From a virus (taxonomy: Duplodnaviria; Heunggongvirae; Uroviricota; Caudoviricetes): a DNA stretch of 51,413 nucleotides. Location: positions 1-51,413 of IMG/VR virus record IMGVR_UViG_2563366798_000003; one strand, written 5' to 3'. Positions 5,080 to 49,488 of this stretch are shown here, piece by piece. The notes beneath the pieces were generated by a model that worked only from the letters and a program-made list of their open reading frames with translations, had not been told where the DNA came from and did no database searches. How positions within the stretch are numbered: the stretch's first letter is position 1; every line of letters begins with the position of its first letter. The position numbers and the translations under genes are program-made.

Positions 5080-5286
5080 TTAGTGATTCAGGCCGTTGCC
5101 GCGTCCGTCGAGAAAAACTTCCACGAGCAAATCACGGGTATAAGTGCGCTCGATGCCGCGATGCAGATAAAGCCGTCCGCGTAAATTAGCTGATGCAGTC
5201 CAGGTACCATCTTTGTGTTTGACCAGCATTCCTGGCATGACCGCACCGCGATTAACGGTCTGCGTTCCGTAATGTTGATGAACCAT
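5080..5286 (-). CDS. hypothetical protein (68 aa), first well-supported gene downstream of the pL-like region
   Basis: ATG preceded by AGGAG at optimal spacing; position corresponds to the lambda kil/cIII/N early-left block, but no similarity recognised. Confidence 0.45.
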   Translation of the reverse strand: MVHQHYGTQTVNRGAVMPGMLVKHKDGTWTASANLRGRLYLHRGIERTYTRDLLVEVFLDGRGNGLNH

Positions 5287-5559
5287 AAAAACTCCTGCCC
5301 GTAAGCTGGGCTGCTGAACAAATAAGGGGTTGCGCAGTATCTGGCGGTGGATGGCCGCCGGTTGTCATAACTAAGTCGCCTCGTTGAAGCAACTGAGGTA
5401 TGAAGTGTTGAGTTGATTTCAGCTGGTCACACCGACGTTCACGCGTCCGTTTCACCCCTCGCACTCCCCGGAGCCTGCTGAAATTCAAGCTGCGGATCTA
5501 AGCGGTCATCGCAACGGTGAATCAGGTGGTTGCCGTATCGTTGTGTTGTTGCGACATGG

Positions 5560-5645
5560 TGATAATAGCTATTGCTATTGGTGATATCAATGCTTATTGC
5601 TATTGTTAGATGTGTTTTGCTATTAAATGTTTGATAGCAAAAAGA
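5560..5645 (-). promoter_or_regulatory. putative OL/pL operator-promoter region
   Basis: Three direct copies of TTGCTATT (5572, 5597, 5617) plus inverted ATAGCAA (5634-5640); same half-site recurs in the cI-cro intergenic region. Confidence 0.45.
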
Positions 5646-5730
5646 ATTAATTTTGTAACTTGAATCGCATAGCGATAACTGAAGCGAGGTCGTGGTGGTT
5701 TTTTGAACGGTTTGTGTGATGAGGGGAGGC

Positions 5731-5757
5731 AAAAGAAAACCCGGCACGGTGGCCGGG
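5731..5757 (-). terminator. rho-independent terminator after the 317-aa gene
   Basis: CCCGGC / GCCGGG stem (5740-5745, 5752-5757) followed on the minus strand by a U-run (plus-strand AAAAGAAAA 5731-5739). Confidence 0.5.
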
Positions 5758-5762
5758 TATCT

Positions 5763-6716
5763 TTATTCGAATGGAAGATCTATTTGCCTTTGAGGATTCA
5801 ACTGTTTTTTTACATGCTCAATTTCGAATATGGTTTTTATGGCATCTCCGATCATATATTGAGTTACTTTTAAATCTACAAGTAACATATCACCTTTAGA
5901 AAAATTTAAGGTGTTGTTATCAATATCGCTGATGAATTTCTGGTCTTTTATTTCAGCCAAAAAGCTACTGGCACCATCAGAAAACCGCCACCGGCTTCCT
6001 TCATTGAAGGAAATATTTTTAATTTGAAGGGCTTTCTCTACTGTGTACTCTGAAATTATTGATTCTGCTGGTAGATTGACTTTGAAATAATGTGCTTCTT
6101 GCTTGTTGATCGTCATGAATGTCAAACCATCATCGACAGTAGAGGCAAAGCTGTCAATGCCTTCCTGCTCTAATGGCTTACTTATAACTTCTTGTAATGA
6201 AGAGCGAAGTTTAATATTTTTATAAAGTTCAATAACGTTACTGTCGTAGATCTCGCTTTCGTCATCAACAAAGACTTCGATGTTGCTATCAGGCAAATTG
6301 TGTAATTTTTTTATTTTCCTTGGACCTATCCATTTTATCAGTTGAATTAGGCCTTTGCATATTTTTTCTTTAGAACCAGGACAGAGTCCAATAAAAGCAA
6401 TCAAATTCGCAGCGGCTGTTGCTGAATCGCCGGATAAAAAATCAACAGCCTGTTTGAACCAAGATGTAGATGAGGCAACCAGATCTATTCCAAATGAGCC
6501 AGCTTTAAATGATGCATTGACTTTTACAGAAACAACAGTCTTGTTTCCGTAGAGAGTTTTACCGGCTTCCTCTAATGCATCTGATAGTGATAGAAGGGCA
6601 GGAGCAAGGTCTCGCACGTTCATTTCATGCGTTTCCAGTGCCGGACCGTCGTATACTATCCTGAACTTCATATCATTGGTTTCCGAATTGTTGCCCGCAT
6701 CCATTATGGCATTCAC
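5763..6716 (-). CDS. hypothetical protein (317 aa) in the lysogenic rex slot between cI and pL
   Basis: Long AT-rich ORF on the cI strand, directly downstream of cI and followed by a terminator; no recognisable domain; start ambiguous (ATG at 6716 or 6704). Confidence 0.75.
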   Translation of the reverse strand: MNAIMDAGNNSETNDMKFRIVYDGPALETHEMNVRDLAPALLSLSDALEEAGKTLYGNKTVVSVKVNASFKAGSFGIDLVASSTSWFKQAVDFLSGDSATAAANLIAFIGLCPGSKEKICKGLIQLIKWIGPRKIKKLHNLPDSNIEVFVDDESEIYDSNVIELYKNIKLRSSLQEVISKPLEQEGIDSFASTVDDGLTFMTINKQEAHYFKVNLPAESIISEYTVEKALQIKNISFNEGSRWRFSDGASSFLAEIKDQKFISDIDNNTLNFSKGDMLLVDLKVTQYMIGDAIKTIFEIEHVKKQLNPQRQIDLPFE

Positions 6717-6777
6717 CTGATCACATATACAGTTAATTTACGATATTGTCTTAAATCTTAAAACTTCTATTGTATGG

Positions 6778-7506
6778 CTACCCATGCTTCCTATACGTCT
6801 GCGGCATGCTCCCAATAACCTTACCGAAGATGAACACCCGGTTCATCTCGTCTTTCTCGATCGGGTCCCAAGGTGAGTAGCTCTTGTTATCAGAGATAAC
6901 CAGCAGCTTATCCTTCATCATTTGCAGACGCTTTACATGGGCTGTGTCGTCGTACAGAAACGCATAGATACCATCACCGTCGAAAGATTTAACCGTGATA
7001 TCAACGAACAGCAGATCACCTGGTTCGATCGTTCCTGACATGCTGTCACCACGCACGTTAATGATGCGGATATTTTCCGCCTTCCTGCCATCGAACATGT
7101 GACGAGCATCGTCAAACGAGTACTCAACCGAGCGTAGAACTTCTACAAACTCACGATTGATGACACCCGGCCCGGCACTGACTTCTATATCAAGAACGTC
7201 AATCTTGAAGTATTTGGAATGGTTGACAGCAGGCTTCCCTGATTGTTGACCGTCATTTCTCATCGGGCCTATGCCTGATGAGAGCCACTCAGTTCGAACA
7301 CCCAATGCATTAGCTATTTCAACAATTTTTGTTGAGCCGCGCGCGTTGCCGCTTGTCAGTCTCCAGATTGTGGGTTGAGCTACGCCAGACGCCTTTGCAA
7401 GAGCGCCTTGAGACATTCCAGATTGTTCCATCGCTAGGTTTAAGCGATCAGCAAGAGTTTCTTTTTTCATAAGTTTTAATTTATACGCTCGCGTATTGAT
7501 GGTCAA
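6778..7506 (-). CDS. cI: CI-type repressor (HTH + S24 LexA-like peptidase domain)
   Basis: 242 aa; N-terminal HTH (MSQGALAKASGVAQPTIWRL), C-terminal S24 signature GDSM and putative Ala-Gly cleavage site; divergent from the Cro-like gene. Confidence 0.9.
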   Translation of the reverse strand: MTINTRAYKLKLMKKETLADRLNLAMEQSGMSQGALAKASGVAQPTIWRLTSGNARGSTKIVEIANALGVRTEWLSSGIGPMRNDGQQSGKPAVNHSKYFKIDVLDIEVSAGPGVINREFVEVLRSVEYSFDDARHMFDGRKAENIRIINVRGDSMSGTIEPGDLLFVDITVKSFDGDGIYAFLYDDTAHVKRLQMMKDKLLVISDNKSYSPWDPIEKDEMNRVFIFGKVIGSMPQTYRKHG

Positions 7507-7580
7507 AACACGTTTTGCTATTGATTGGGTTAATACGCATTGCTATTATCTATTCATTGCAATACCAATAGGAATTGATA
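7507..7580. promoter_or_regulatory. putative OR/pR/pRM operator region
   Basis: Divergent cI/cro intergenic region with near-palindrome CAAAACACGTTTTG (7506-7519) and two TTGCTATT half-sites. Confidence 0.5.
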
Positions 7581-10385: not shown

Positions 10386-10741
10386 TTTGATGGTTATCTC
10401 GAAAACATCCAATCAAATTTAATGGTTTGCTTTGTGCGGGGAACTATAACAATGTTTCTAGCTTGGTGCTGTATGAATTAGTGAATTAGTAGGGAATATA
10501 TCCACACATTGATTAACACAAAAATATTTCAGATATTAAATGTAACTCAAAGGATGAGTAATAATGGTTGTGTAGCGTATAACAGGATGCTGAGGTAGTA
10601 TTAAACAATGAATAAATCTGATTGACAAGCACCAGATAATACTGCGGGTCAATCATTAGACATGAACGCCACTAGTTACTGAGAGTAACTAATGGCGTTG
10701 TGTTTATAGTTAAGATGTTTTTTTAAAACATCAGGGGGGCT

Positions 10742-12289
10742 CTACTTGTCTTTTTTAATATGTTCAATCTCATCATTAAGACATTTATCTATTTTTTTTA
10801 TTAACACATTAATTTCTTCGGTGTTTTGGAGTTGAGTTGTCTTAGAAACAAAAACTCGAATAAAGAATTTAACATAGTGATAGGGTTGAAGTACATCGTT
10901 ATACTTACATAAATCATTTATTGTATACTTGCCGCCTGTTTCTTTTTTTATTATTTTAGCTTGACTTGTATCGATATCTTTAAAGTTATCTTCAATCTGA
11001 AAATCAAGAACCCATTCATCTCCTTTTAAATTATCCTCAATGATTTTGTTGATTTTCTTAGATATATTTTGTTTATATTCTTTGTATCTGTTGTCGGAAA
11101 TGTTAACATTAGAAAACGTGTGTTTTTTTTCATATATTTTTTTCCAAACATTTCTATCAACAATATCTTGAATTATAGCTTGAGAATTTTTATCTAATGT
11201 GTTTTTAAGAGTGTTTTCTAAAAACGTTTTGTCTGGGTTTTCACGATAAAAGTGTTTGATGGACTCAATGAGAGTGTTTTTAGATTTTAAAGAGACAACA
11301 TCATCAGTTTTTTTTCTAGAACACGCTTTGTTAAGCATCGCAGATAGTGCACGATTGGTCTTATGAAAATAAACTTGACTATAAAGCCCACTTCTTGCAT
11401 TGGCAAATTCTAGTATTGAATCCATACCACTTTCTTTATATGCCAGGTAAACACTATTTTCAACTTTCACAGGAATAAATGACATTAATAATCGTCCATA
11501 ATCATAAATCCCATATTTAACGCCGGAGAAGTAGCTATCTCTAAGTAGGTAGTCCATTCTGTCCGCATCTATAGGTGAAGATGATATGATTGAACATAAT
11601 AAAGGATATACATTTACTCCCTCAATGTTATTTTTAAAATCATATCTTTTATCAACAATTTTTATAATGCTTTCTGGATTAATAGCCGCTATGTTTTCTT
11701 TATAGACATCGTCGTCATTTGATTTATCTTGGGCTTCATTTTTTAATTCTTCAATAATTTCTTTAATAAAAATACATGATACTTGTTCGTGGGTTAACTT
11801 GTCATTATCACTTAAAGATATAATCTTATCGTATTGTTTATTTCCTTCAGTTTTGCATTTTTCTTTGAAATCTTTTACGGATATTGCAAAACTATCGAAT
11901 TGGTGGGCAAGTGGGCCATGCCCAACATCGTGTAACAATGCTGCAATACGTAACTCCTGTATAAGACTTGAAGGCATTTTTTTTATATCTAAATATAGAT
12001 CAATGCCCATATTTTTTCGGTCATAAATTAATGCATTCAAATTTATATTTTTCAAAATCTCATACGATAAATGCATTACACCGACAGAGTGTTCAAAGCG
12101 AGAGTGCATTGCAGAAGGAAATACTTTATATAGAAACGTGTTCTGCCTGATATCTCGTAGTCGTTGGAATAAAGGATGGTCAATTATCTTTTTTTCTAGC
12201 TTAGTTATTCGAATCACTCCATGTATGGGATCTAAAAACTTCCCCAGAAGTAAGTCTTCAAAGTTCTCAAGTTTGTTTTTGTTTGTCAT
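10742..12289 (-). CDS. HD-domain phosphohydrolase, Dgt/SAMHD1-like putative dNTP triphosphohydrolase
   Basis: 515 aa; motifs H-x-x-H (HSRFEHSVGVMH), HD (LLHDVGHGPLAH) and D-x-D-R-x-D-Y-x-x-R-D (DADRMDYLLRDSYFSG); AAGGAAAG SD; strongly AT-rich, opposite strand to flanking phage genes. Confidence 0.85.
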   Translation of the reverse strand: MTNKNKLENFEDLLLGKFLDPIHGVIRITKLEKKIIDHPLFQRLRDIRQNTFLYKVFPSAMHSRFEHSVGVMHLSYEILKNINLNALIYDRKNMGIDLYLDIKKMPSSLIQELRIAALLHDVGHGPLAHQFDSFAISVKDFKEKCKTEGNKQYDKIISLSDNDKLTHEQVSCIFIKEIIEELKNEAQDKSNDDDVYKENIAAINPESIIKIVDKRYDFKNNIEGVNVYPLLCSIISSSPIDADRMDYLLRDSYFSGVKYGIYDYGRLLMSFIPVKVENSVYLAYKESGMDSILEFANARSGLYSQVYFHKTNRALSAMLNKACSRKKTDDVVSLKSKNTLIESIKHFYRENPDKTFLENTLKNTLDKNSQAIIQDIVDRNVWKKIYEKKHTFSNVNISDNRYKEYKQNISKKINKIIEDNLKGDEWVLDFQIEDNFKDIDTSQAKIIKKETGGKYTINDLCKYNDVLQPYHYVKFFIRVFVSKTTQLQNTEEINVLIKKIDKCLNDEIEHIKKDK

Positions 12290-12648
12290 GAGGCTTTCCT
12301 TTTGCTGTAGTTATAATACGAAATTTAAATAGTAATGATGTTTATAGTTTCAATGTGTTATCTAATGGTTAACACATTGTGATGTAGCATATCAATATGG
12401 ATTCATATGTTCAATTGGTCTGTGGAGTTTAGTTATGAATAAGATTGATTCTGGTAATACTTTGTAGTTTAAGCTAGAGGCGGGATTCGTGATGTTCAAA
12501 TCAGTATGTAATGGAGGTTGTGCATTAGTACTTGCTGCTGGAAATTAAAAATAAAGTTGCAAGTAATCGACGTTTTCCGGGAGGAGGATGTAAGCATCGC
12601 TGACCAAAAAGTATCAACGATGCCTGTTTTGTTTTAACTACAAATTAA

Positions 12649-14151
12649 TTAAATTGCATCTGCAAACTCTGTGATTTTTCGCTCAAGTATGATTGATGAG
12701 TTGCTGTTGTCGATTTTTTTATTTTCATGATTACGAATAGCCAATGACTCATTAAAGTCTTTTGCGACTGCTGTCTCAATAAATTCAATTTCTGAATCAG
12801 AGTGTTTTTTAACAGCTTCTTTGATCTCATCCAGAGTAACATAGAAAAACTCTTTTCTACGATTTACAAGATTGACTCTCTTTTTATCGAAGACATCATG
12901 TAGTTTTTTTTCTAATGATGGAGCGTCCTCCGAATAAATCATGGCATGCACATCAAAAATAAAAGGAACAGATGCATCACCAAGCTCATTTACACGGTCT
13001 TGTGGATCAAGACGTCGTGTCATGCCTATTTTATAAACATTCTCCCCAAAAGAACCTATGTTCGAAATAATATAAACATGACCTTGTTTGGTTTGTTGTG
13101 CCATGGATAATGCTCTTTGATGCTTTGATTCAGCCTGCGACAAACTCTGTTCTAGTTCGGCAATGCGATTTTCGAGGCGCTGCTTCATGTCACCAGTAAC
13201 TTTTTCCATTTCCTTTCTTGCAGCTTCAATTGCTTTTTTATAACGGCGCTCTTCTGCCTCTGCGTCTTGCATGGCCTTTTCTATTTCTCGTTGTGCACGC
13301 TCCTCCTCTCTCATTTGTGCCCTTATTTCTGCCTGTTCTTCTTTTTCTTTCTGTTTTTGCTCACGATATTCATGGGTAAGCCACAACTCCTCAAGTTTTT
13401 TATTAAGGTATTTAGTATTTATATATATGTGATTTTGCTCGTTTAGTTTATTTATGGCCTCAAATGCCTTTGTGATGCGTTCTTCCATTTTAGTGATATT
13501 TTTCCACGTGCAATTACTAATTGCAGCATCACATTCATTATTAAATGCTCTAGTAGTTAGCCTAATATTTCTGTCTGTCATTTTTTTACCCTCTGCTCGA
13601 GAGCCTTCAACAGTCCATTGGGTTGTGCAATATACTGCACCAGAGTGGGTTTTATCCCGCAGCATTAATTTCTGTTCATCCCTGATGGATTTTATTTTGT
13701 TTTTAAATTGCTCTGAATCTTCAAAATTAAAATGAGGTTCGTAAAATCCTAGTTCGGCTAGTTCAACATCTTCTGAATAAATAGAAATTTGCTTTACTAG
13801 CTTATCATATATTTCTTTCTTCTCTTTATAAGTTCTTCTTAGTTCTTGGATTTGTTTATTGATACCATCCATTTTTTCAATGGTGTTTGTTAGTTCATTA
13901 TTGGCATTTTCTTTTACTTTTTGGGACTCTTCTTTTATAATGGAGCATTCTTGCTCTGTTTTCTCAATAAGCTTCTTACATTCCTCTTCCACATTAAAAT
14001 AATCTGCAAAGCGAGATTTGTATTCTTCATTTTTTTGATTGCTATCACTTAATTCTAATTGTATTTTTTTGATGCGTTTGATTGCAGCTATATATAGAAC
14101 AAGAACAACCAATAAAAATATGATTGCAAGTAATAGTGGAGTTTGAGTCAT
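12649..14151 (-). CDS. membrane-anchored coiled-coil protein with C-terminal T5orf172/GIY-YIG-like domain
   Basis: 500 aa; N-terminal hydrophobic helix (LLLAIIFLLVVLVLYIAAI), long charged coiled-coil segments, C-terminal GHVYIISN...VYKIGMT...VPFIFDVHAMIY motif; AAGGA SD. Confidence 0.8.
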   Translation of the reverse strand: MTQTPLLLAIIFLLVVLVLYIAAIKRIKKIQLELSDSNQKNEEYKSRFADYFNVEEECKKLIEKTEQECSIIKEESQKVKENANNELTNTIEKMDGINKQIQELRRTYKEKKEIYDKLVKQISIYSEDVELAELGFYEPHFNFEDSEQFKNKIKSIRDEQKLMLRDKTHSGAVYCTTQWTVEGSRAEGKKMTDRNIRLTTRAFNNECDAAISNCTWKNITKMEERITKAFEAINKLNEQNHIYINTKYLNKKLEELWLTHEYREQKQKEKEEQAEIRAQMREEERAQREIEKAMQDAEAEERRYKKAIEAARKEMEKVTGDMKQRLENRIAELEQSLSQAESKHQRALSMAQQTKQGHVYIISNIGSFGENVYKIGMTRRLDPQDRVNELGDASVPFIFDVHAMIYSEDAPSLEKKLHDVFDKKRVNLVNRRKEFFYVTLDEIKEAVKKHSDSEIEFIETAVAKDFNESLAIRNHENKKIDNSNSSIILERKITEFADAI

Positions 14152-14577
14152 TCGTGCTATTCCTTACGGACAATTTAAGACGTTTTGTATTAAATCCTGT
14201 TCAATGTGTATGCGGGTGATTGCTACCGCTTACAATCTTCATAATTATCAGTTAGATAGACTCGCTAGTAAATAATTTCATTTTTTGCAATATTCTTATT
14301 GAATATTTCAATTTATGAAATGAACTCTTTATCCTTTCAAGGCGAAAGGTTTCTTCTTCGGAAATATTTGCTCTCGTGTGACGTATAAAGGCCTTTGATT
14401 TTTAAAAAACAGTAGGGAATAATATAGTTACTGTCGGCCTGAACACCCGGCGGTGGGGTTGCGCTAAACGGGGACGTTTATGCGCACATACAATCTAAAC
14501 TCTCTTCTCCCTTCACAGATGCAGAAATGCACCTGCGATTTTTTGCATCCAACGTTTGACCTCTGCGGAGGTGAAGC

Positions 14578-16600: not shown

Positions 16601-17125
16601 TTATTGTTTAACCCATAATAATTCATTGACATTGAATCCCAACTTTTGAGCGGTTCGCACATAGTCTGCTTTTACTTTATCTGGAATAGTTGAGGTCCTT
16701 GCCAGAATCCATAGGTATTCTCTGTTCGGACCACTGACAAGAGCATACTTATACTCATCATCCAGTTTGATTACATTATAGCCACCATAGAAGGGGCCAA
16801 AAAACGAAACCTTCAACGCTGCAGTTTTAGTATCTCCAGTAAAGTATGCTTTACCTTCGCTCTCGCTCCATTTATTTTTCGTTGGATCGTATCCACGGTT
16901 AAGTACACGAATCCCTCCGTCGTTCCGTTTTCCATAAGTAGCGCTGACCTGTTCCAGACCACGTTCGAACCGGTTCTCGAGGCGAGCTATTTCATACCAT
17001 TTTCCGAGGTAGCGGTTGGCGTCAAAATTTGTAATCGGCTGCACACCTTTAGGTGGTGTCGGGGTCTTACATGCTATAAGAGTGAAAGAGAGCGCAATGC
17101 CAGTCAACACAGGCCATAACTTCAT
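16601..17125 (-). CDS. lipocalin-family outer-membrane lipoprotein (Blc-like)
   Basis: 174 aa with lipoprotein signal (LSFTLIAC) and lipocalin motif (GKWYEIARLENRFE); moron position between Q and lysis genes. Confidence 0.8.
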   Translation of the reverse strand: MKLWPVLTGIALSFTLIACKTPTPPKGVQPITNFDANRYLGKWYEIARLENRFERGLEQVSATYGKRNDGGIRVLNRGYDPTKNKWSESEGKAYFTGDTKTAALKVSFFGPFYGGYNVIKLDDEYKYALVSGPNREYLWILARTSTIPDKVKADYVRTAQKLGFNVNELLWVKQ

Positions 17126-22281: not shown

Positions 22282-22707
22282 TTAGTGCGGAAATATTTGT
22301 GTAGTGTTCTGAATGTTCTCAGTAAATAGTAATGAATTATCAAAGGTATAGTAATACCTTTTGTTTTCGTGGATATTTGTAATCCATCTGAAAACCCCTG
22401 CTGTAGCAAGATTTTTCCTGTATTCGTAAAATGATAACTCTCCTGATTTGAATCCTTTTAAGGTGGCTTCTATAAGGCATTTATTTTTTGAAAATCTTAC
22501 ATTTACAACCTTACCCTGTCCTTTTATTAAAACCGTATTATCGTTTTCAAGAACAAGATGAATATTCTCTGTGGCTAAATAGTAAATGTAATGTGAGACA
22601 TTGTGACGTTTTAGTTCAGAATAAAACCAGTGATAGTTTAAATTATTTCGCACTTTATCGAATATTTGTTTAAAAATGGCAACCTGAGCCATTGTAGTAC
22701 CTTCCAT
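22282..22707 (-). CDS. YbcV-like protein (DUF1398-type), tentative
   Basis: 141 aa, AT-rich; position between lysis genes and cos matches DLP12 ybcV. Confidence 0.5.
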
Positions 22708-45470: not shown

Positions 45471-45482
45471 TGGAGTAAGACA

Positions 45483-46523
45483 ATGGTTACAAAAACAGTA
45501 ATTCCTGATGACATCAAAACGCTAAAATCCGATGTTAGTAAACTAAAAACTGATCAAGGAAGCTATGCAACAAAATCATATGTAGACAATAAAACAACAT
45601 GGAATAGTTATTGCAATGTAATCTATGATCAAAAGGCATTGCCGACCACTGGAACTATATTTAGCGGTAAGATTCACTTGTCAAATAAGGCAGGAGAAAC
45701 CGAAAACGCTTATAGCGAGATGTACACCAGAAAAAATATTGACGGCACTAAAGATACAATGACAAGGATTGTCACACACAACGGAACAAAAGGTATCTTC
45801 TGGGATTTTAGCGATCTTTACGGTGGGACATTGATTTTCCCAGGAAATGAAGGTTACTTAAAAATGGGTAAGTGCCTCATGTCTTATGGGAATCGTGTTG
45901 ATAACGCCATTATTAAATTTGATTACACAGACACATTACAAATCAAATACGCTAATCATGGGTCAACCATGACATTAAACACACAGGGAACCGCTCACGC
46001 TGGCGTAACAACTAGACTATGGGGTAGTTCTAGCCGTCCGGTTGTTTATGAAGTTGGCGTAGATGAGGCTCTGTATATGTTCTACGCACAGAAAACTACC
46101 AGCAATACCTACGAATTAACGGTTAACGGCGCGTGCAATGCAAGTGCATTTAATCAAGGCTCTGACCGGGATCTGAAAGACAATATTCAGGTGATCGATA
46201 ATGCAACCGACCGCATTCGTAAAATGAACGGCTATACATACACGCTTAAAGAAAACGGTATGCCTTACGCTGGTGTTATTGCACAAGAAACCCTGGAAGC
46301 CATCCCCGAAGCCGTAGGGGCTATGATGAAATATCCAGACGGCGGGAGTGGATTAGATGGAGAAGAAGGTGAACGGTATTACACTGTAGATTATTCTGGT
46401 GTTACTGGCTTGCTTGTTCAGGTAGCCAGAGAGTCAGACGACAGGATAACAGCACTGGAAGAAGAAAACGCAGAATTAAGACAAAGATTATCTGCAATTG
46501 AGGCGGTGCTTGCGTCTAAATAA
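45483..46523 (+). CDS. tail fibre/tailspike-like protein with C-terminal intramolecular chaperone (peptidase S74-type) domain
   Basis: 346 aa; C-terminal region (SDRDLKDNIQVID...GYTYTLKENGMPYAGVIAQE...YYTVDYSGVTGLLVQ...coiled coil) resembles autoproteolytic chaperone domains of phage fibres. Confidence 0.65.
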   Translation: MVTKTVIPDDIKTLKSDVSKLKTDQGSYATKSYVDNKTTWNSYCNVIYDQKALPTTGTIFSGKIHLSNKAGETENAYSEMYTRKNIDGTKDTMTRIVTHNGTKGIFWDFSDLYGGTLIFPGNEGYLKMGKCLMSYGNRVDNAIIKFDYTDTLQIKYANHGSTMTLNTQGTAHAGVTTRLWGSSSRPVVYEVGVDEALYMFYAQKTTSNTYELTVNGACNASAFNQGSDRDLKDNIQVIDNATDRIRKMNGYTYTLKENGMPYAGVIAQETLEAIPEAVGAMMKYPDGGSGLDGEEGERYYTVDYSGVTGLLVQVARESDDRITALEEENAELRQRLSAIEAVLASK

Positions 46524-47535: not shown

Positions 47536-48285
47536 ATGGATTATGTTTGCTCCGTAGTTTTCATCTGTCAATCATTTGATTTAATTATAAACAGGAGAGT
47601 TATCTCGTTCAAAAAAAATTCATTGTTTATTGTAAGCGACAAAATTAGAAGAGAGTTACCAGTATGCCCCTCTAAACTAAGAATTGTTGATATAGATAAG
47701 AAAACATGTTTATCCTTTTTTATCGACGTGAATAATGAGTTGCCTGGCAAATTTACTCTTGATAAGAATGGCTATATTGCTGAAGAGGAACCTCCATTAT
47801 CGCTTGTTTTTTCTCTGTTTGAAGGGATTAAAATAGCAGACTCACACTCCCTTTGGTTAAAAGAAAGACTATGTATATCCTTACTTGCCATGTTCAAAAA
47901 ACGCGAAAGTGTAAATTCATTTATACTAACAAATATAAATACATTTACCTGTAAAATTACTGGAATAATCAGTTTTAATATTGAGCGGCAATGGCATTTA
48001 AAAGATATTGCGGAATTGATTTATACGAGTGAAAGTTTAATAAAAAAAAGATTAAGGGATGAAGAAACGTCATTTACTGAAATATTGAGAGATACTAGGA
48101 TGAGGTATGCAAAAAAACTCATAACTTCAAACTCTTATTCTATCAATGTCGTAGCCCAGAAATGTGGCTATAACAGTACTTCATATTTCATATGTGCATT
48201 TAAAGATTATTATGGTGTCACGCCATCTCATTATTTTGAGAAAATAATCGGCGTCACAGATGGAATAAACAAAACAATTGACTGA
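47536..48285 (+). CDS. appY: AraC-family regulator, AppY-like
   Basis: 249 aa, strongly AT-rich, C-terminal AraC HTH; sequence and position next to ompT match my recollection of E. coli AppY. Confidence 0.75.
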
Positions 48286-48534: not shown

Positions 48535-49488
48535 TTAAAATGTGTACTTAAGACCAGCAGTAGTGATGAAGTTATAGTTTTCTATGCCTGCTCCATTTTT
48601 GCTGTAGTCTGAAGTGTTATTATTGTGATCATAAAGTGAAGTATTACCTTTTTTATTCGTAACCCGATTCCATGCGCCTTCAACATAAACTTTTGCGTTA
48701 GGTGTGACGTAATAACCTGCATTGACTGCAACAGAATAGTAATTTTGGTCTTTGACCTTACTGCGATAAGTGATTCTTTTTCCCGGGTCATAGTGTTCAT
48801 CGTTATCAGATGATTCCACCCAGCCGCTGTATTTAAATGTGCCACCTAGCTCAAAATCTTCATAACGATAACTTCCAGTCAAGCCAATGTAGGGCATTTT
48901 AAAACGTTGTTTGTAGCCGATTGCTCTTTCTCCATTCGGGAAGGAGCCGATATCATCTCTGAATCCCTCCTCAGAACTGTAGATATAGGAACCACCTCTG
49001 GCTGTAAAGCTATAACGGCTTTCCTGATATCCGGCCATGAGTCCCAGGCGGTAATTGGGTTCGTTGAGGAGCCAGCCTTTGATATTCAGATCAAATTCGT
49101 TGGCATAATTGAGTTGTGTATCAGGATGTCTACTTTCATCCGTCCAGGTTCCGGGGTTACTGGAATCCATCCAGTCCTGATCGACCATATTGCCACCTCG
49201 GCTGCCGAGTGTTGTCCAGCCAGCAGCCCCGATAGATATCTGAGGCATCAAATCCCAATTAATTGCACCTTTAATAATTGCAGCGTTATTGAATTTCCAG
49301 TCAAGTTGACTGACTTTTCGGCTTCCTTCTTCGGCTAGATAAACACGCTCTTTTGTTTTTCCGCTCAGAGTTCCAAGACTAATGTCCGCATTTATGTTGT
49401 CAGGAGTAAACGATAAAGTCTCGGTAGAAGCAAAAGAGTTGATCGCAATAGGGGTTGTCAGGACTATTCCCAGAAGTTTCGCCCGCAT
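48535..49488 (-). CDS. ompT: outer membrane protease OmpT (omptin)
   Basis: 317 aa matching E. coli OmpT (MRAKLLGIVLTTPIAI...TAGLKYTF). Confidence 0.95.
   Translation of the reverse strand: MRAKLLGIVLTTPIAINSFASTETLSFTPDNINADISLGTLSGKTKERVYLAEEGSRKVSQLDWKFNNAAIIKGAINWDLMPQISIGAAGWTTLGSRGGNMVDQDWMDSSNPGTWTDESRHPDTQLNYANEFDLNIKGWLLNEPNYRLGLMAGYQESRYSFTARGGSYIYSSEEGFRDDIGSFPNGERAIGYKQRFKMPYIGLTGSYRYEDFELGGTFKYSGWVESSDNDEHYDPGKRITYRSKVKDQNYYSVAVNAGYYVTPNAKVYVEGAWNRVTNKKGNTSLYDHNNNTSDYSKNGAGIENYNFITTAGLKYTF

Follow-up and report, generated by a model that had tools for sequence, protein, structure and literature searches.

A cassette-borne gene behind the CI repressor of a lambdoid prophage: a candidate anti-phage factor with a conserved LexA-like operator

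The immunity region and the gene behind the repressor

The window, by which we mean the whole stretch of 51,413 nucleotides that was analysed (IMG/VR virus record IMGVR_UViG_2563366798_000003), contains a lambdoid immunity region in which a gene for a CI-type repressor is followed on the same strand, after a gap of 61-73 nt, by a single open reading frame that is called the slot gene here (Table 1). The repressor combines the domains HTH_3 and Peptidase_S24. A terminator-like hairpin begins 5 nt past the TAA stop codon of the slot gene and ahead of the OL/pL repeats, and it belongs to the conserved phage backbone that is common to all cargo variants of this slot. The TTGCTATT-type repeats that occur on either side of the two genes are consistent with OL and OR. 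As the -10 element of the pRM-like promoter ends about 8 nt before the cI ATG, the cI mRNA is probably nearly leaderless, as in lambda. The annotated lambda map displays the identical order cI, rexA, rexB, OL, N, and the initial annotation, which had placed the gene directly 3' of cI on the same strand, in front of a terminator and in the slot of the rex genes, is confirmed. The slot gene also adjoins the gam-bet-exo-kil operon.

An ORF check of the window returned the slot gene as an intact ORF of 317 aa with a GTG start (5763..6716, minus strand), as originally described, though this is only the maximal ORF. The true start is likely the ATG at 6704, resulting in 313 aa, since the Shine-Dalgarno sequence AGGTGA precedes it and both the RefSeq entry WP_000338655.1 (942 nt) and the cluster P0001 (313 aa) agree with it. 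The AT-richness that had been noticed relative to the neighbours also holds, with a GC content of 0.377 (GC3 0.343) in comparison to 0.475 for cI and 0.50-0.54 for kil, gam, bet, exo, cII and P. The slot gene is no chance ORF, because its family comprises 5,305 clusters at 50% identity and conservation within the family follows the codon positions (0.82/0.90/0.42 for positions 1/2/3).

Table 1. Features of the immunity region, with positions in the window
Feature	Position	Strand	Basis
OL-type operator repeats, TTGCTATT motif	5556..5650	-	repeat recurs at 7494-7580
pL-like promoter, TTGATA-17-TATTAT	5590..5562	-	promoter pattern
Intrinsic terminator-like hairpin ACCCGGCCACCGTGCCGGGT with 7-bp G+C-rich stem, then TTTCTTTT	5731..5758	-	sequence reading; sibling comparison
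Slot gene CDS, 313 aa plus stop, member of PDC-S42 / LAPAL NF053583 / phrog_3243	5763..6704	-	ORF call, HMM matches, RefSeq length
Exchangeable cassette, about 1 kb, slot gene as sole cargo	~5764..6777	.	homology break against five sibling phages
Shine-Dalgarno AGGTGA, 8 nt 5' of ATG 6704	6713..6718	-	direct reading; invariant in all leader-variant-1 copies
LexA-box-like palindrome AACTGTATATGTGATCAGGT (CTGT-N8-TCAG)	6715..6734	-	PWM and positional conservation
Invariant TAAATT directly 5' of the box, possible -10 of a cassette promoter	6735..6740	-	sequence reading, leader alignment
cI-type repressor, HTH_3 and Peptidase_S24, 230 aa from ATG 7470 (maximal ORF 6778..7506 from TTG 7506)	6778..7470 (probable)	-	ORF and domain search
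pRM-like promoter, TTGACC-17-TAAATT	7478..7506	-	promoter pattern
OR-type operator repeats	7494..7580	+	same TTGCTATT-type repeat as 5556-5650
pR-like promoter, TTGATT-17-TATTAT	7521..7549	+	promoter pattern

An exchangeable cassette

The homology to five sibling phages ends at the cI stop codon (6778/6779) on one side and at 5757-5770 on the other, which delimits the cassette. At the same place the siblings carry GevTA, HipAD, PDC-M63 or other cargo and no slot gene, and in lambda the corresponding cargo is rexAB. Presence or absence among such phages bears out the earlier supposition that the gene is accessory; the cassette is present in 0.6% of E. coli genomes. Together with the deviant GC content, the terminator and the regulatory signals, the presence/absence pattern between near-identical phages characterizes the cassette as a moron, which would have entered the lambdoid prophage with one edge precisely at the cI stop codon and the other at the terminator of the immunity region. 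An omptin, a lipocalin and an AraC regulator are further host-fitness morons of the same prophage.

The slot gene and lambda rexAB share their position 3' of cI, on the same strand and before the terminator and OL/pL, and both are accessory and dispensable for the phage. However, hhalign detects no homology between the slot protein and RexA (probability 0.15%), and the cassette, being a single gene, lacks an equivalent of the membrane partner RexB. A closer parallel in layout is BstA of the Salmonella prophage BTP1, an experimentally validated abortive-infection protein of about 300 aa that is encoded 3' of the prophage repressor, keeps this synteny beside diverse repressors throughout Gram-negative bacteria, and has its own Rho-independent terminator (PMC8585504). 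The slot gene is likewise a single gene for about 300 aa, co-oriented 3' of the repressor, in synteny with diverse repressors and with a terminator of its own, but the sequences are unrelated (hhalign probability 0.09% with an Acinetobacter BstA). The KilA-N domain of BstA is absent from the slot protein, which instead possesses a C-terminal OB fold, and PADLOC assigns it to PDC-S42 only. Remote homology was also looked for with GevT, PDC-M63B and a 340-aa Perceval protein, and as with RexA and the Acinetobacter BstA the hhalign probability was about 1% or less in each case.

Protein family and architecture

Whereas no domain had been recognized in the initial annotation, the slot protein is in fact a full-length member of a family that is represented in three databases. 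It matches PDC-S42 of PADLOC with E=3.4e-86 (residues 15-316 on positions 3-300 of the 302 of the profile), the NCBIfam model NF053583 "LAPAL" with 270 bits at a cut-off of 60 (E = 2e-80), and PHROG 3243 (phrog_3243) over its full length with E=1.3e-116. The eponymous motif reads D36-L-A-P-A-L41 in the slot protein; in 90 sequences, L37 and P39 are invariant and A38, A40 and L41 are conserved to at least 97%. Family members are stand-alone proteins of about 300 aa from prophages of Proteobacteria, Firmicutes and Actinobacteria, and no domain fusion was found among the best 150 of the 5,305 clusters. Pfam returned for the slot protein only a sub-threshold DUF2004 and no KilA-N, and a PDB profile search by sequence gave nothing at E <= 10. 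No Rfam family was detected in the window. In the literature search, neither a publication dealing with PDC-S42, the LAPAL motif, WP_000338655 or phrog_3243 nor an experiment on any family member was found. PDCs are the defence candidates of PADLOC and are largely unvalidated. A 2025 study by Brenes and Laub (Cell Host Microbe 33:1004) is cited elsewhere for defence systems in E. coli prophages and may be the source of the PhiR phage records.

The slot protein is predicted to be soluble and acidic, with a mass of about 35 kDa. A membrane protein was considered and rejected, as the maximal 19-residue hydropathy is 1.31 and there is no transmembrane segment. The C-terminal third is modelled as an OB fold, in which five strands form a beta-barrel and a helix connects beta3 to beta4, and its conserved residues include the aromatic and basic F237, K242, W243, F252, F261, F272 and K274. 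The N-terminal two-thirds (about 215 residues) form a modelled alpha/beta region that has no recognizable counterpart and carries the invariant YDGPAL...DLAPAL. Neither a catalytic, NTPase or membrane signature nor a recognizable killing or effector domain was found in the protein. There is no sequence similarity to the OB-fold ssDNA binders SSB, RPA, PriB and Rim1, and unlike SSB-type proteins the slot protein has an acidic OB domain that is joined to the large N-terminal region. In the 90 sequences the net charge of this domain never becomes positive, with a median of -4; this acidity across the family weakens the case for classical ssDNA binding.

A census of family neighbourhoods revealed that the commonest position is behind a Cro/CI-type repressor and that there is no conserved partner gene. 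What is essentially one protein (at least 90% identical) stands behind eight or more repressor alleles, which belong to two unrelated classes and include self-cleaving S24 repressors, and several carrier prophages encode short HTH-only repressors without the S24 cleavage domain. Some homologs have no neighbouring repressor at all. In Mu-like phages, homologs adjoin Mu Gam, precede mor or, in a few cases, neighbour the morphogenesis genes Phage_tail_S or Mu F. On an Acinetobacter island, a homolog is located 1.2 kb from a true BstA, and two of the four loci there lie outside any recognizable prophage.

NCBIfam calls the family "LAPAL motif-containing putative phage structural protein", a name that would make it a virion component, and the few Mu-like homologs near Phage_tail_S or Mu F genes could be taken in the same sense. 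The position of the slot gene argues against this role and conflicts with the name: it is located in the immunity region, on the strand opposite to the late genes, upstream of pL and with its own terminator, so that neither late nor pL transcription arrives there. Sibling phages that share the backbone furthermore lack the gene, the homolog of phage A2 is set apart from the lysis genes by a terminator and a promoter-like sequence, and the modelled structure gave no match to the fold of a structural protein. We therefore regard a structural role as the least probable of all readings considered here, with hardly any chance of being correct.

A conserved LexA-like operator

The segment directly upstream of the slot gene contains a LexA-box-like palindrome that ends 11 nt before ATG 6704 and overlaps the ribosome-binding site with its right arm. 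In genes of the SOS regulon, a CTGT-N8-(A/T)CAG palindrome is likewise found at the promoter or in the 5' UTR, as in the uvrA/ssb box TACTGTATATTCATTCAGGT; the putative copy of the slot gene has TCAG as right arm, with one mismatch. With a position weight matrix (PWM) built from known boxes, it reaches 13.7 bits and is the top site in the window, at the lower end of the 13.2-27.2 bits of known boxes, but shuffled windows also attain this value and the site is not significant by score. It is conservation that gives the box its standing. Of the 58 distinct upstream regions, 22 score at least 12 bits, and the site is then almost always placed at -80/-81 nt from the YDGP codon. The identity within the box is 0.87 (arms 0.97, spacer 0.78), in comparison to 0.32 for the flank upstream of it and 0.42 for synonymous sites. 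In homologs at about 60% identity, the box is framed by a TTTACT -35 element and a TATAAT -10 element. Promoter prediction in the leader variant of the window found no promoter for the box to control. What is new here is that this LexA-like palindrome is fixed in position across divergent enterobacterial homologs; neither the operator nor the repressor linkage of the family is mentioned in the PDC preprint or the other papers found.

The box is carried by the cassette itself, between cI and the start codon. LexA control as a property of the slot was rejected, as the box is absent from the other cargo, namely the lambda rexAB region (best site 4.7 bits), GevTA, HipAD and the Perceval cargo. SOS control as a family-wide trait was rejected as well, as no Cheo box was found upstream of the Lactobacillus, Listeria and Bifidobacterium homologs. 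Because the box is conserved, expression of the slot gene is probably SOS-responsive and not simply read-through from pRM. The initial proposal, in which the repressor promoter drives the gene in the lysogen, is thus not established and probably incomplete.

A LexA-like box ahead of a repressor-adjacent gene could indicate an antirepressor that inactivates the adjacent repressor upon SOS, after the model of Gifsy GfoA/GftA and of Tum of phage 186, and the HTH-only repressors of several carriers would agree with this. However, a nearly unchanged protein behind so many repressor alleles of unrelated classes is not what such a specific interaction would produce, and S24 repressors need no antirepressor. 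The Gifsy layout also differs, as GfoA and GftA are small proteins encoded beside dinI, 1.3 kb downstream of the replication genes (PMC3121763), whereas the slot protein has 313 aa and is encoded in the immunity region; moreover, homologs exist without an adjacent repressor. On the grounds of repressor promiscuity and of the Gifsy layout we rejected this idea, which we consider very improbable.

A proposed prophage-borne exclusion factor and its alternatives

The explanation that we prefer, with a probability of about 0.45 for the explanation as a whole, is that the slot gene is a cassette-borne factor directed against other phages, or more generally against competitors, under control of a LexA operator. 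The slot protein would act stoichiometrically. Its OB domain may bind a ligand that stems from the phage or is associated with SOS, rather a protein than bulk ssDNA, and would disturb the replication or recombination stage of the rival phage. The operator of the cassette would set the expression level, which would rise upon SOS by relief from putative LexA binding, on top of any read-through from pRM. As there is no recognizable effector domain, how such binding would stop a phage is speculation. An anti-phage role as such is plausible, with a chance that we would put slightly short of even. The initial label as a superinfection-exclusion or abortive-infection candidate is a fair one in view of the full-length PDC-S42 match and of the GevTA, HipAD and PDC-M63 in sibling slots, but the argument is one of guilt by association. 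The homologs of Mu-like phages beside gam, mor and morphogenesis genes, where expression would be lytic, speak against the preferred explanation, and a role in the induction of the prophage itself would be just as compatible with SOS control.

Such a role is the main alternative, and we consider it possible, though clearly less probable than the exclusion factor. Here, the slot protein would be a helper of its own prophage in the SOS phase that aids induction or early lytic growth, for example through an effect on RecA filaments, SSB or recombination intermediates, or through the protection of DNA ends. The conserved LexA-type operator would be in line with this. The same holds for the OB domain, a fold typical of proteins that work on ssDNA or with the machinery of replication and repair, for the early-region location of Mu-like homologs beside Mu Gam or directly ahead of mor, and for the gam-bet-exo-kil operon next to the slot gene. 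Yet a core induction function would not reside on so rare a cassette that sibling phages swap for toxin-antitoxin-like cargo. The family was also found embedded in bacterial defence operons, with the original instance of PDC-S42 in an operon of the BREX, DISARM, RM-I or Hma kind, its Acinetobacter members beside BstA occur partly without a recognizable prophage, and the Gram-positive homologs lack a Cheo box.

It is also conceivable, albeit unlikely, that the slot gene is a lysogenic-conversion factor from which the host profits when its DNA is damaged or when it is stressed, and which plays no direct part in conflicts between phages. The moron-like layout with foreign GC, the SOS control implied by the box, and the omptin, lipocalin and AraC morons in the same prophage would agree with this. 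A phage-centred function fits better to a family that is spread over the different niches of Proteobacteria, Firmicutes and Actinobacteria, and the tight repressor linkage and the PDC membership point in the same direction.

Implications

The slot gene is well suited to experiments, though not without precedent. That anti-phage systems are kept in the interval behind prophage repressors is established by rexAB and bstA, and the slot gene is a recurrent occupant of this interval. With more than 5,000 clusters across temperate phages of Gram-negative and Gram-positive hosts, one plating experiment could annotate thousands of genes, and the same experiment could settle the conflict between the labels "defence candidate" and "structural protein". 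The LexA operator is a concrete prediction that can be tested cheaply. If it holds, some cargo of the slot is wired to SOS rather than to the repressor promoter, which alters when and why such genes act.

A more far-reaching reading, which we think is rather doubtful, is that the family represents an uncharacterized class of prophage immunity, in which a non-enzymatic acidic OB-fold protein is held back by LexA, produced upon SOS, and binds a conserved component of the replication or recombination of rivals. The trigger of SOS could be the DNA damage or the replication intermediates of the infecting phage, or the induction of the resident prophages. If this were true, such SOS-armed exclusion by a single protein would tie the bacterial DNA-damage response directly to the warfare between phages, and the cassette would hop between immunity regions of differing specificity.

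The gene behind cI and its setting in the prophage

The accessory gene behind cI, hereafter the slot gene, was initially annotated as a frame at 5763..6716 (-), and this frame is real. Its GTG at 6716 lacks a ribosome-binding site, and ATG 6704 is preceded by AGGTGA at 8-nt spacing and is also the start in RefSeq WP_000338655.1 (942 nt) and in the cluster representative protein P0001 (313 aa), so that a gene of 313 aa starting at 6704 is the best description. The gene is AT-rich, with a GC content of 0.377 (GC3 0.343) compared with 0.475-0.536 in its neighbours. It lies directly downstream of, and on the same strand as, a CI-type repressor with HTH_3 and Peptidase_S24 domains, and 5 nt past its TAA the terminator follows, a G+C-rich hairpin and then TTTCTTTT. 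Operator-like repeats with a TTGCTATT core are found near the pL-like promoter beyond this terminator and recur around the pR-like promoter. The annotated record of lambda has the same gene order, with rexA and rexB in the place of the slot gene. Every descriptive element of the initial annotation, including its assignment of the gene to the rex slot, is confirmed.

The repressor gene itself most likely starts at ATG 7470 (230 aa), directly after a pRM-like promoter, TTGACC-17-TAAATT. This ATG is found about 8 nt past the -10 element, which suggests that the cI mRNA is leaderless or nearly so, like that of lambda; the 242-aa frame from TTG 7506 probably has 12 codons in excess. Between the pL-like promoter and kil, about 280 nt are apparently untranslated, and no N-like ORF was found there, only a doubtful 78-aa TTG ORF that overlaps kil (Bievrevirus-like phage group). 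An Rfam search of the window gave no match.

A very AT-rich block just after ren (GC 0.26-0.35) is a second accessory or defence island of the same prophage. Its 500-aa protein is a full-length match to PD-Lambda-1 (PADLOC E=5e-198) with Pfam DUF4041 and T5orf172, and its 515-aa protein has an HD domain and a weak match to a dGTPase model. Four further genes, coding for an omptin, an AraC-family regulator, a lipocalin and a DUF1398 protein, are likely lysogenic-conversion genes.

Features of the window
Feature	Position	Strand	Remark
Apparently untranslated interval	5286-5562		pL-like promoter to kil
pL-like promoter	5590..5562	-	beyond the terminator
Terminator	5758..5731		
Slot gene	5763..6704	-	313 aa
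LexA-box-like palindrome	6715-6734	-	upstream of slot gene
pRM-like promoter	7478..7506		
Operator-like repeats	7494-7580		around pR-like promoter
AT-rich block	10400-14200		
First ORF of block	10742..12289	-	
Second ORF of block	12649..14151	-	
Blc-like lipocalin	16601..17125	-	
DUF1398 protein	22282..22707	-	
Runner-up LexA-like site	45481-45500		
Peptidase_S74-domain ORF	45483..46523		
AraC-family regulator	47536..48285	+	
OmpT-like omptin	48535..49488	-	317 aa, by coincidence the length of the initially annotated ORF

An exchangeable cassette

The 2.5 kb around the slot gene are 96-98% identical to many lambdoid phages (PhiR30_1, 4A7, Perceval and others), in the flanks only (59% coverage). 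In BLAST comparisons with five of these phages, homology breaks off at the cI stop codon (6778/6779) on one side and at 5757-5770 on the other, the site of the slot gene stop and the terminator hairpin. The terminator is therefore part of the backbone, and the cargo is all that lies between it and the cI stop. In the siblings, this cargo is GevT/GevA (PhiR47_2), HipA/HipD (PhiR5_1), an ASCH-domain protein with a 353-aa protein (4A7), a pair of 310 and 141 aa (PhiR30_1) or a 340-aa protein with a transmembrane protein (Perceval), and three of the five match the PADLOC candidate families PDC-M11, PDC-M66 and PDC-M63. The interval between cI and N is a recognised hotspot of mosaicism in lambdoid phages; it carries rexAB in lambda and, in BTP1, bstA, a gene highly expressed in lysogens (PMC8585504). 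The slot gene is like rexAB in position and logic, and its closest likeness is bstA, likewise a lone gene for some 300 aa that follows the repressor and has a terminator of its own. However, the slot protein is homologous to neither RexA nor BstA and is without RexB-like or KilA-N parts.

Of 5,426 complete E. coli genomes, 34 (0.6%) carry the window's allele, always as a single copy and at least 99.6% identical, while the flanks diverge to about 96%. An IS1A element interrupts the gene in one carrier, E. coli STEC388 (NZ_CP041425.1; hits H43/H76). Copies with 90% identity or more to the window protein stand behind at least eight different repressor alleles, which fall into two unrelated classes (four are S24-type, four are short and HTH-only), and the cassette therefore moves between immunity specificities. 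An antirepressor role fails on this promiscuity across eight alleles and on the Gifsy precedent, in which the antirepressors are small and encoded next to dinI (PMC3121763); we consider it very improbable, well behind both a role in phage-phage conflict and a helper function in the SOS phase.

A large family with an acidic OB domain

The initial annotation recognised no domain in the slot protein. This holds for Pfam, which has no model, but not elsewhere, as there are full-length matches to PADLOC PDC-S42 (E=3e-86), to PHROG 3243 of unknown function (E=1e-116) and to NCBIfam NF053583 (270 bits, cut-off 60). PDC families are computational candidates whose source genes are embedded in BREX, DISARM, type I RM or Hma loci (Payne et al. 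2024 preprint), and most are still unvalidated (PMC12988326). No mention of PDC-S42, the LAPAL motif, PHROG 3243 or WP_000338655.1 was found in the literature. The family is very large and uniform: it counts 370 matches in a 90%-clustered database and, at 50% identity, 5,305 clusters, of which 1,758 have E <= 1e-30. The best 150 of these 5,305 are mostly stand-alone proteins of about 300 aa, with a few shorter fragments and no fused domains.

NF053583 is named 'LAPAL motif-containing putative phage structural protein'. A structural role conflicts with the position and strand of the slot gene and with its absence from sibling phages, and we regard it as the least probable reading, behind the conflict role and the SOS-phase helper. 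In Mu-like phages (locus L016 and IMG/VR loci), the family member is found beside Mu Gam, before mor, or by Phage_tail_S/Mu F, and not beside a repressor. These neighbourhoods may be the origin of the name, and they hint at lytic-phase expression in those phages.

Conserved in the family are YDGPAL (22-27), DLAPAL (36-41), SF.G.FG (69-76) and a C-terminal set (F237, K242, W243, D247, G248, F252, D258, F261, F272, K274, D276, Q286). Our reading of the family alignment gave no catalysis-like conservation pattern of His, Cys or Glu, and the slot protein has no transmembrane-grade segment. Its pI is 5.0, and the OB domain is acidic family-wide (median net charge -4, never positive), which speaks against a generic role like that of SSB and would rather point to a protein or a specific small molecule as ligand. 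Because enzymatic or pore-forming signatures are lacking, the slot protein probably acts by binding, and recognition would likely be through the OB domain, on the face with the conserved aromatic and charged residues.

Genomic neighbourhood

Homologs inspected individually are co-oriented with and directly downstream of repressors of differing types: a 155-aa CI_repr protein in an E. coli Rac-like prophage, a 130-aa HTH_19 protein in a Salmonella prophage, S24 repressors in Pseudomonas-like contigs, and a repressor in a Burkholderia prophage. The homolog adjoins the integrase in Lactobacillus phage A2, Listeria phage vB_LmoS_188 and Bifidobacterium phage PMBT6, and in A2 a terminator and promoter-like sequence lie between it and the endolysin gene. 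A Methylobacter Mu-like phage has it in the early region, just before mor. In a census of 80 IMG/VR loci (189 viral contigs matched), the 60 dereplicated upstream neighbours include HTH_3 (26), Peptidase_S24 (20) and Phage_CI_repr (7), with a minority of Mu Gam (3), Phage_tail_S (3), Mor (1) and Mu F (1); one BLAST-linked same-strand repressor superfamily accounts for 28. The 64 dereplicated downstream neighbours belong to 56 different families of at most three members, so the family has no partner gene.

In Acinetobacter pittii, a homolog shares a small island with a full-length BstA (E=4e-115), at a distance of 1.2 kb. This island by cysS (comparison loci L006-L009, 6001-9067) consists of the family member, a 210-aa protein with a weak HIRAN match, a 78-aa ORF and BstA, and lies outside any recognisable prophage in two of the four loci.

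A putative LexA-type operator

Alignment of the 5' flanks of near-identical copies in different repressor contexts indicates that the cassette's own sequence starts about 45 nt before the ATG. This leader holds AACTGTATATGTGATCAGGT, a CTGT-N8-TCAG palindrome. Scored with a matrix of 20 E. coli LexA boxes, it is the top site of the 51-kb window, but its 13.7 bits are near the bottom of the range of real boxes (13.2-27.2), and comparable scores occur in shuffled windows, so that the box by itself proves nothing. The runner-up of the window, TACTGTTTTTGTAACCATTG with a chance-level 12.8 bits, overlaps the start of the Peptidase_S74-domain ORF.

The weight of the putative operator comes from its conservation. 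Sites of at least 12 bits occur in 22 of 58 distinct upstream regions of homologs, nearly all at a constant -80/-81 nt relative to the YDGP codon and all in the enterobacterial clade, down to 52% protein identity; control windows of the same loci average about -1 bit. Variants nearer the consensus are TACTGTATAAACGAACAGGT (19.0 bits) and TACTGTATATGCAAACAGGC (18.6 bits), and a 38%-identity homolog has AACTGTATATACAGACAGGA (22.0 bits). In a 17-sequence alignment, mean pairwise identity is 0.87 for the 20-nt box (arms 0.97, spacer 0.78), compared with 0.32 in the 60 nt upstream, 0.53 in the leader after it and 0.82, 0.90 and 0.42 at codon positions 1, 2 and 3. Standing out against the flank and codon position 3, the box therefore forms a non-coding island on which purifying selection acts.

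In homologs at about 60% identity, the box lies, as read from the alignment, between a TTTACT -35 and a TATAAT-like -10, the standard layout of SOS promoters. The window's leader variant has an invariant TAAATT before the box, whose right arm overlaps the ribosome-binding site, but no clear promoter. As no LexA-type box was found at lambda rexAB, GevTA, HipAD or the Perceval cargo, it belongs to the cassette and not to the slot. The unrelated PDC-M63A/B cargo of PhiR30_1, in the same slot, has a 22-bit match, TACTGTAATTTTATACAGCT (locus L012, 4135-4154), which lies within M63A as annotated (about codons 23-30) and may be a chance match, an operator inside the gene or the sign of a mis-called start. 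Gram-positive homologs showed no Cheo box. From these sequence patterns, LexA binding and SOS induction of the slot gene are predicted.

Expression and possible role

Since pL fires away from the slot gene, the gene can be reached only from the cI side (by transcripts of pRM or pRE) or from a promoter within the cassette. No terminator-like site lies between cI and the slot gene on their strand. The initial annotation proposed lysogenic expression from the repressor promoter, which is probably incomplete in view of the conserved LexA-type operator at the 5' end of the gene. The gene would have basal expression together with cI, and LexA cleavage would provide a boost to its expression, or the main part of it.

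We think that the slot gene may act in phage-phage conflict, with a probability of roughly 45%, because the slot otherwise carries rexAB, bstA and TA-like genes, PDC-S42 was independently derived from genes embedded in defence loci, BstA adjoins the Acinetobacter homolog, and the family is linked to repressors and spread across phyla. The main rival is a helper of the prophage's own induction or early development in the SOS phase. It would account equally well for the LexA box, for the OB fold and for the neighbourhoods with Mu Gam, but poorly for a cassette present in only 0.6% of genomes, and we hold it to be rather unlikely. A stress-related benefit to the host is less likely than either and appears improbable.

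The slot protein is thus a genuine member of a candidate family that was already catalogued, and its gene lies in a hotspot that was already recognised. New are the exact limits of the cassette and its transfer between immunity types, an acidic OB fold assigned to the C-terminal part, and the conserved putative SOS operator. Together, boundaries, fold and operator correct the expression model of the initial annotation and supply clear experimental handles, and the gene would be of high interest if it could be shown to exclude phages by a non-enzymatic mechanism armed by the SOS response.
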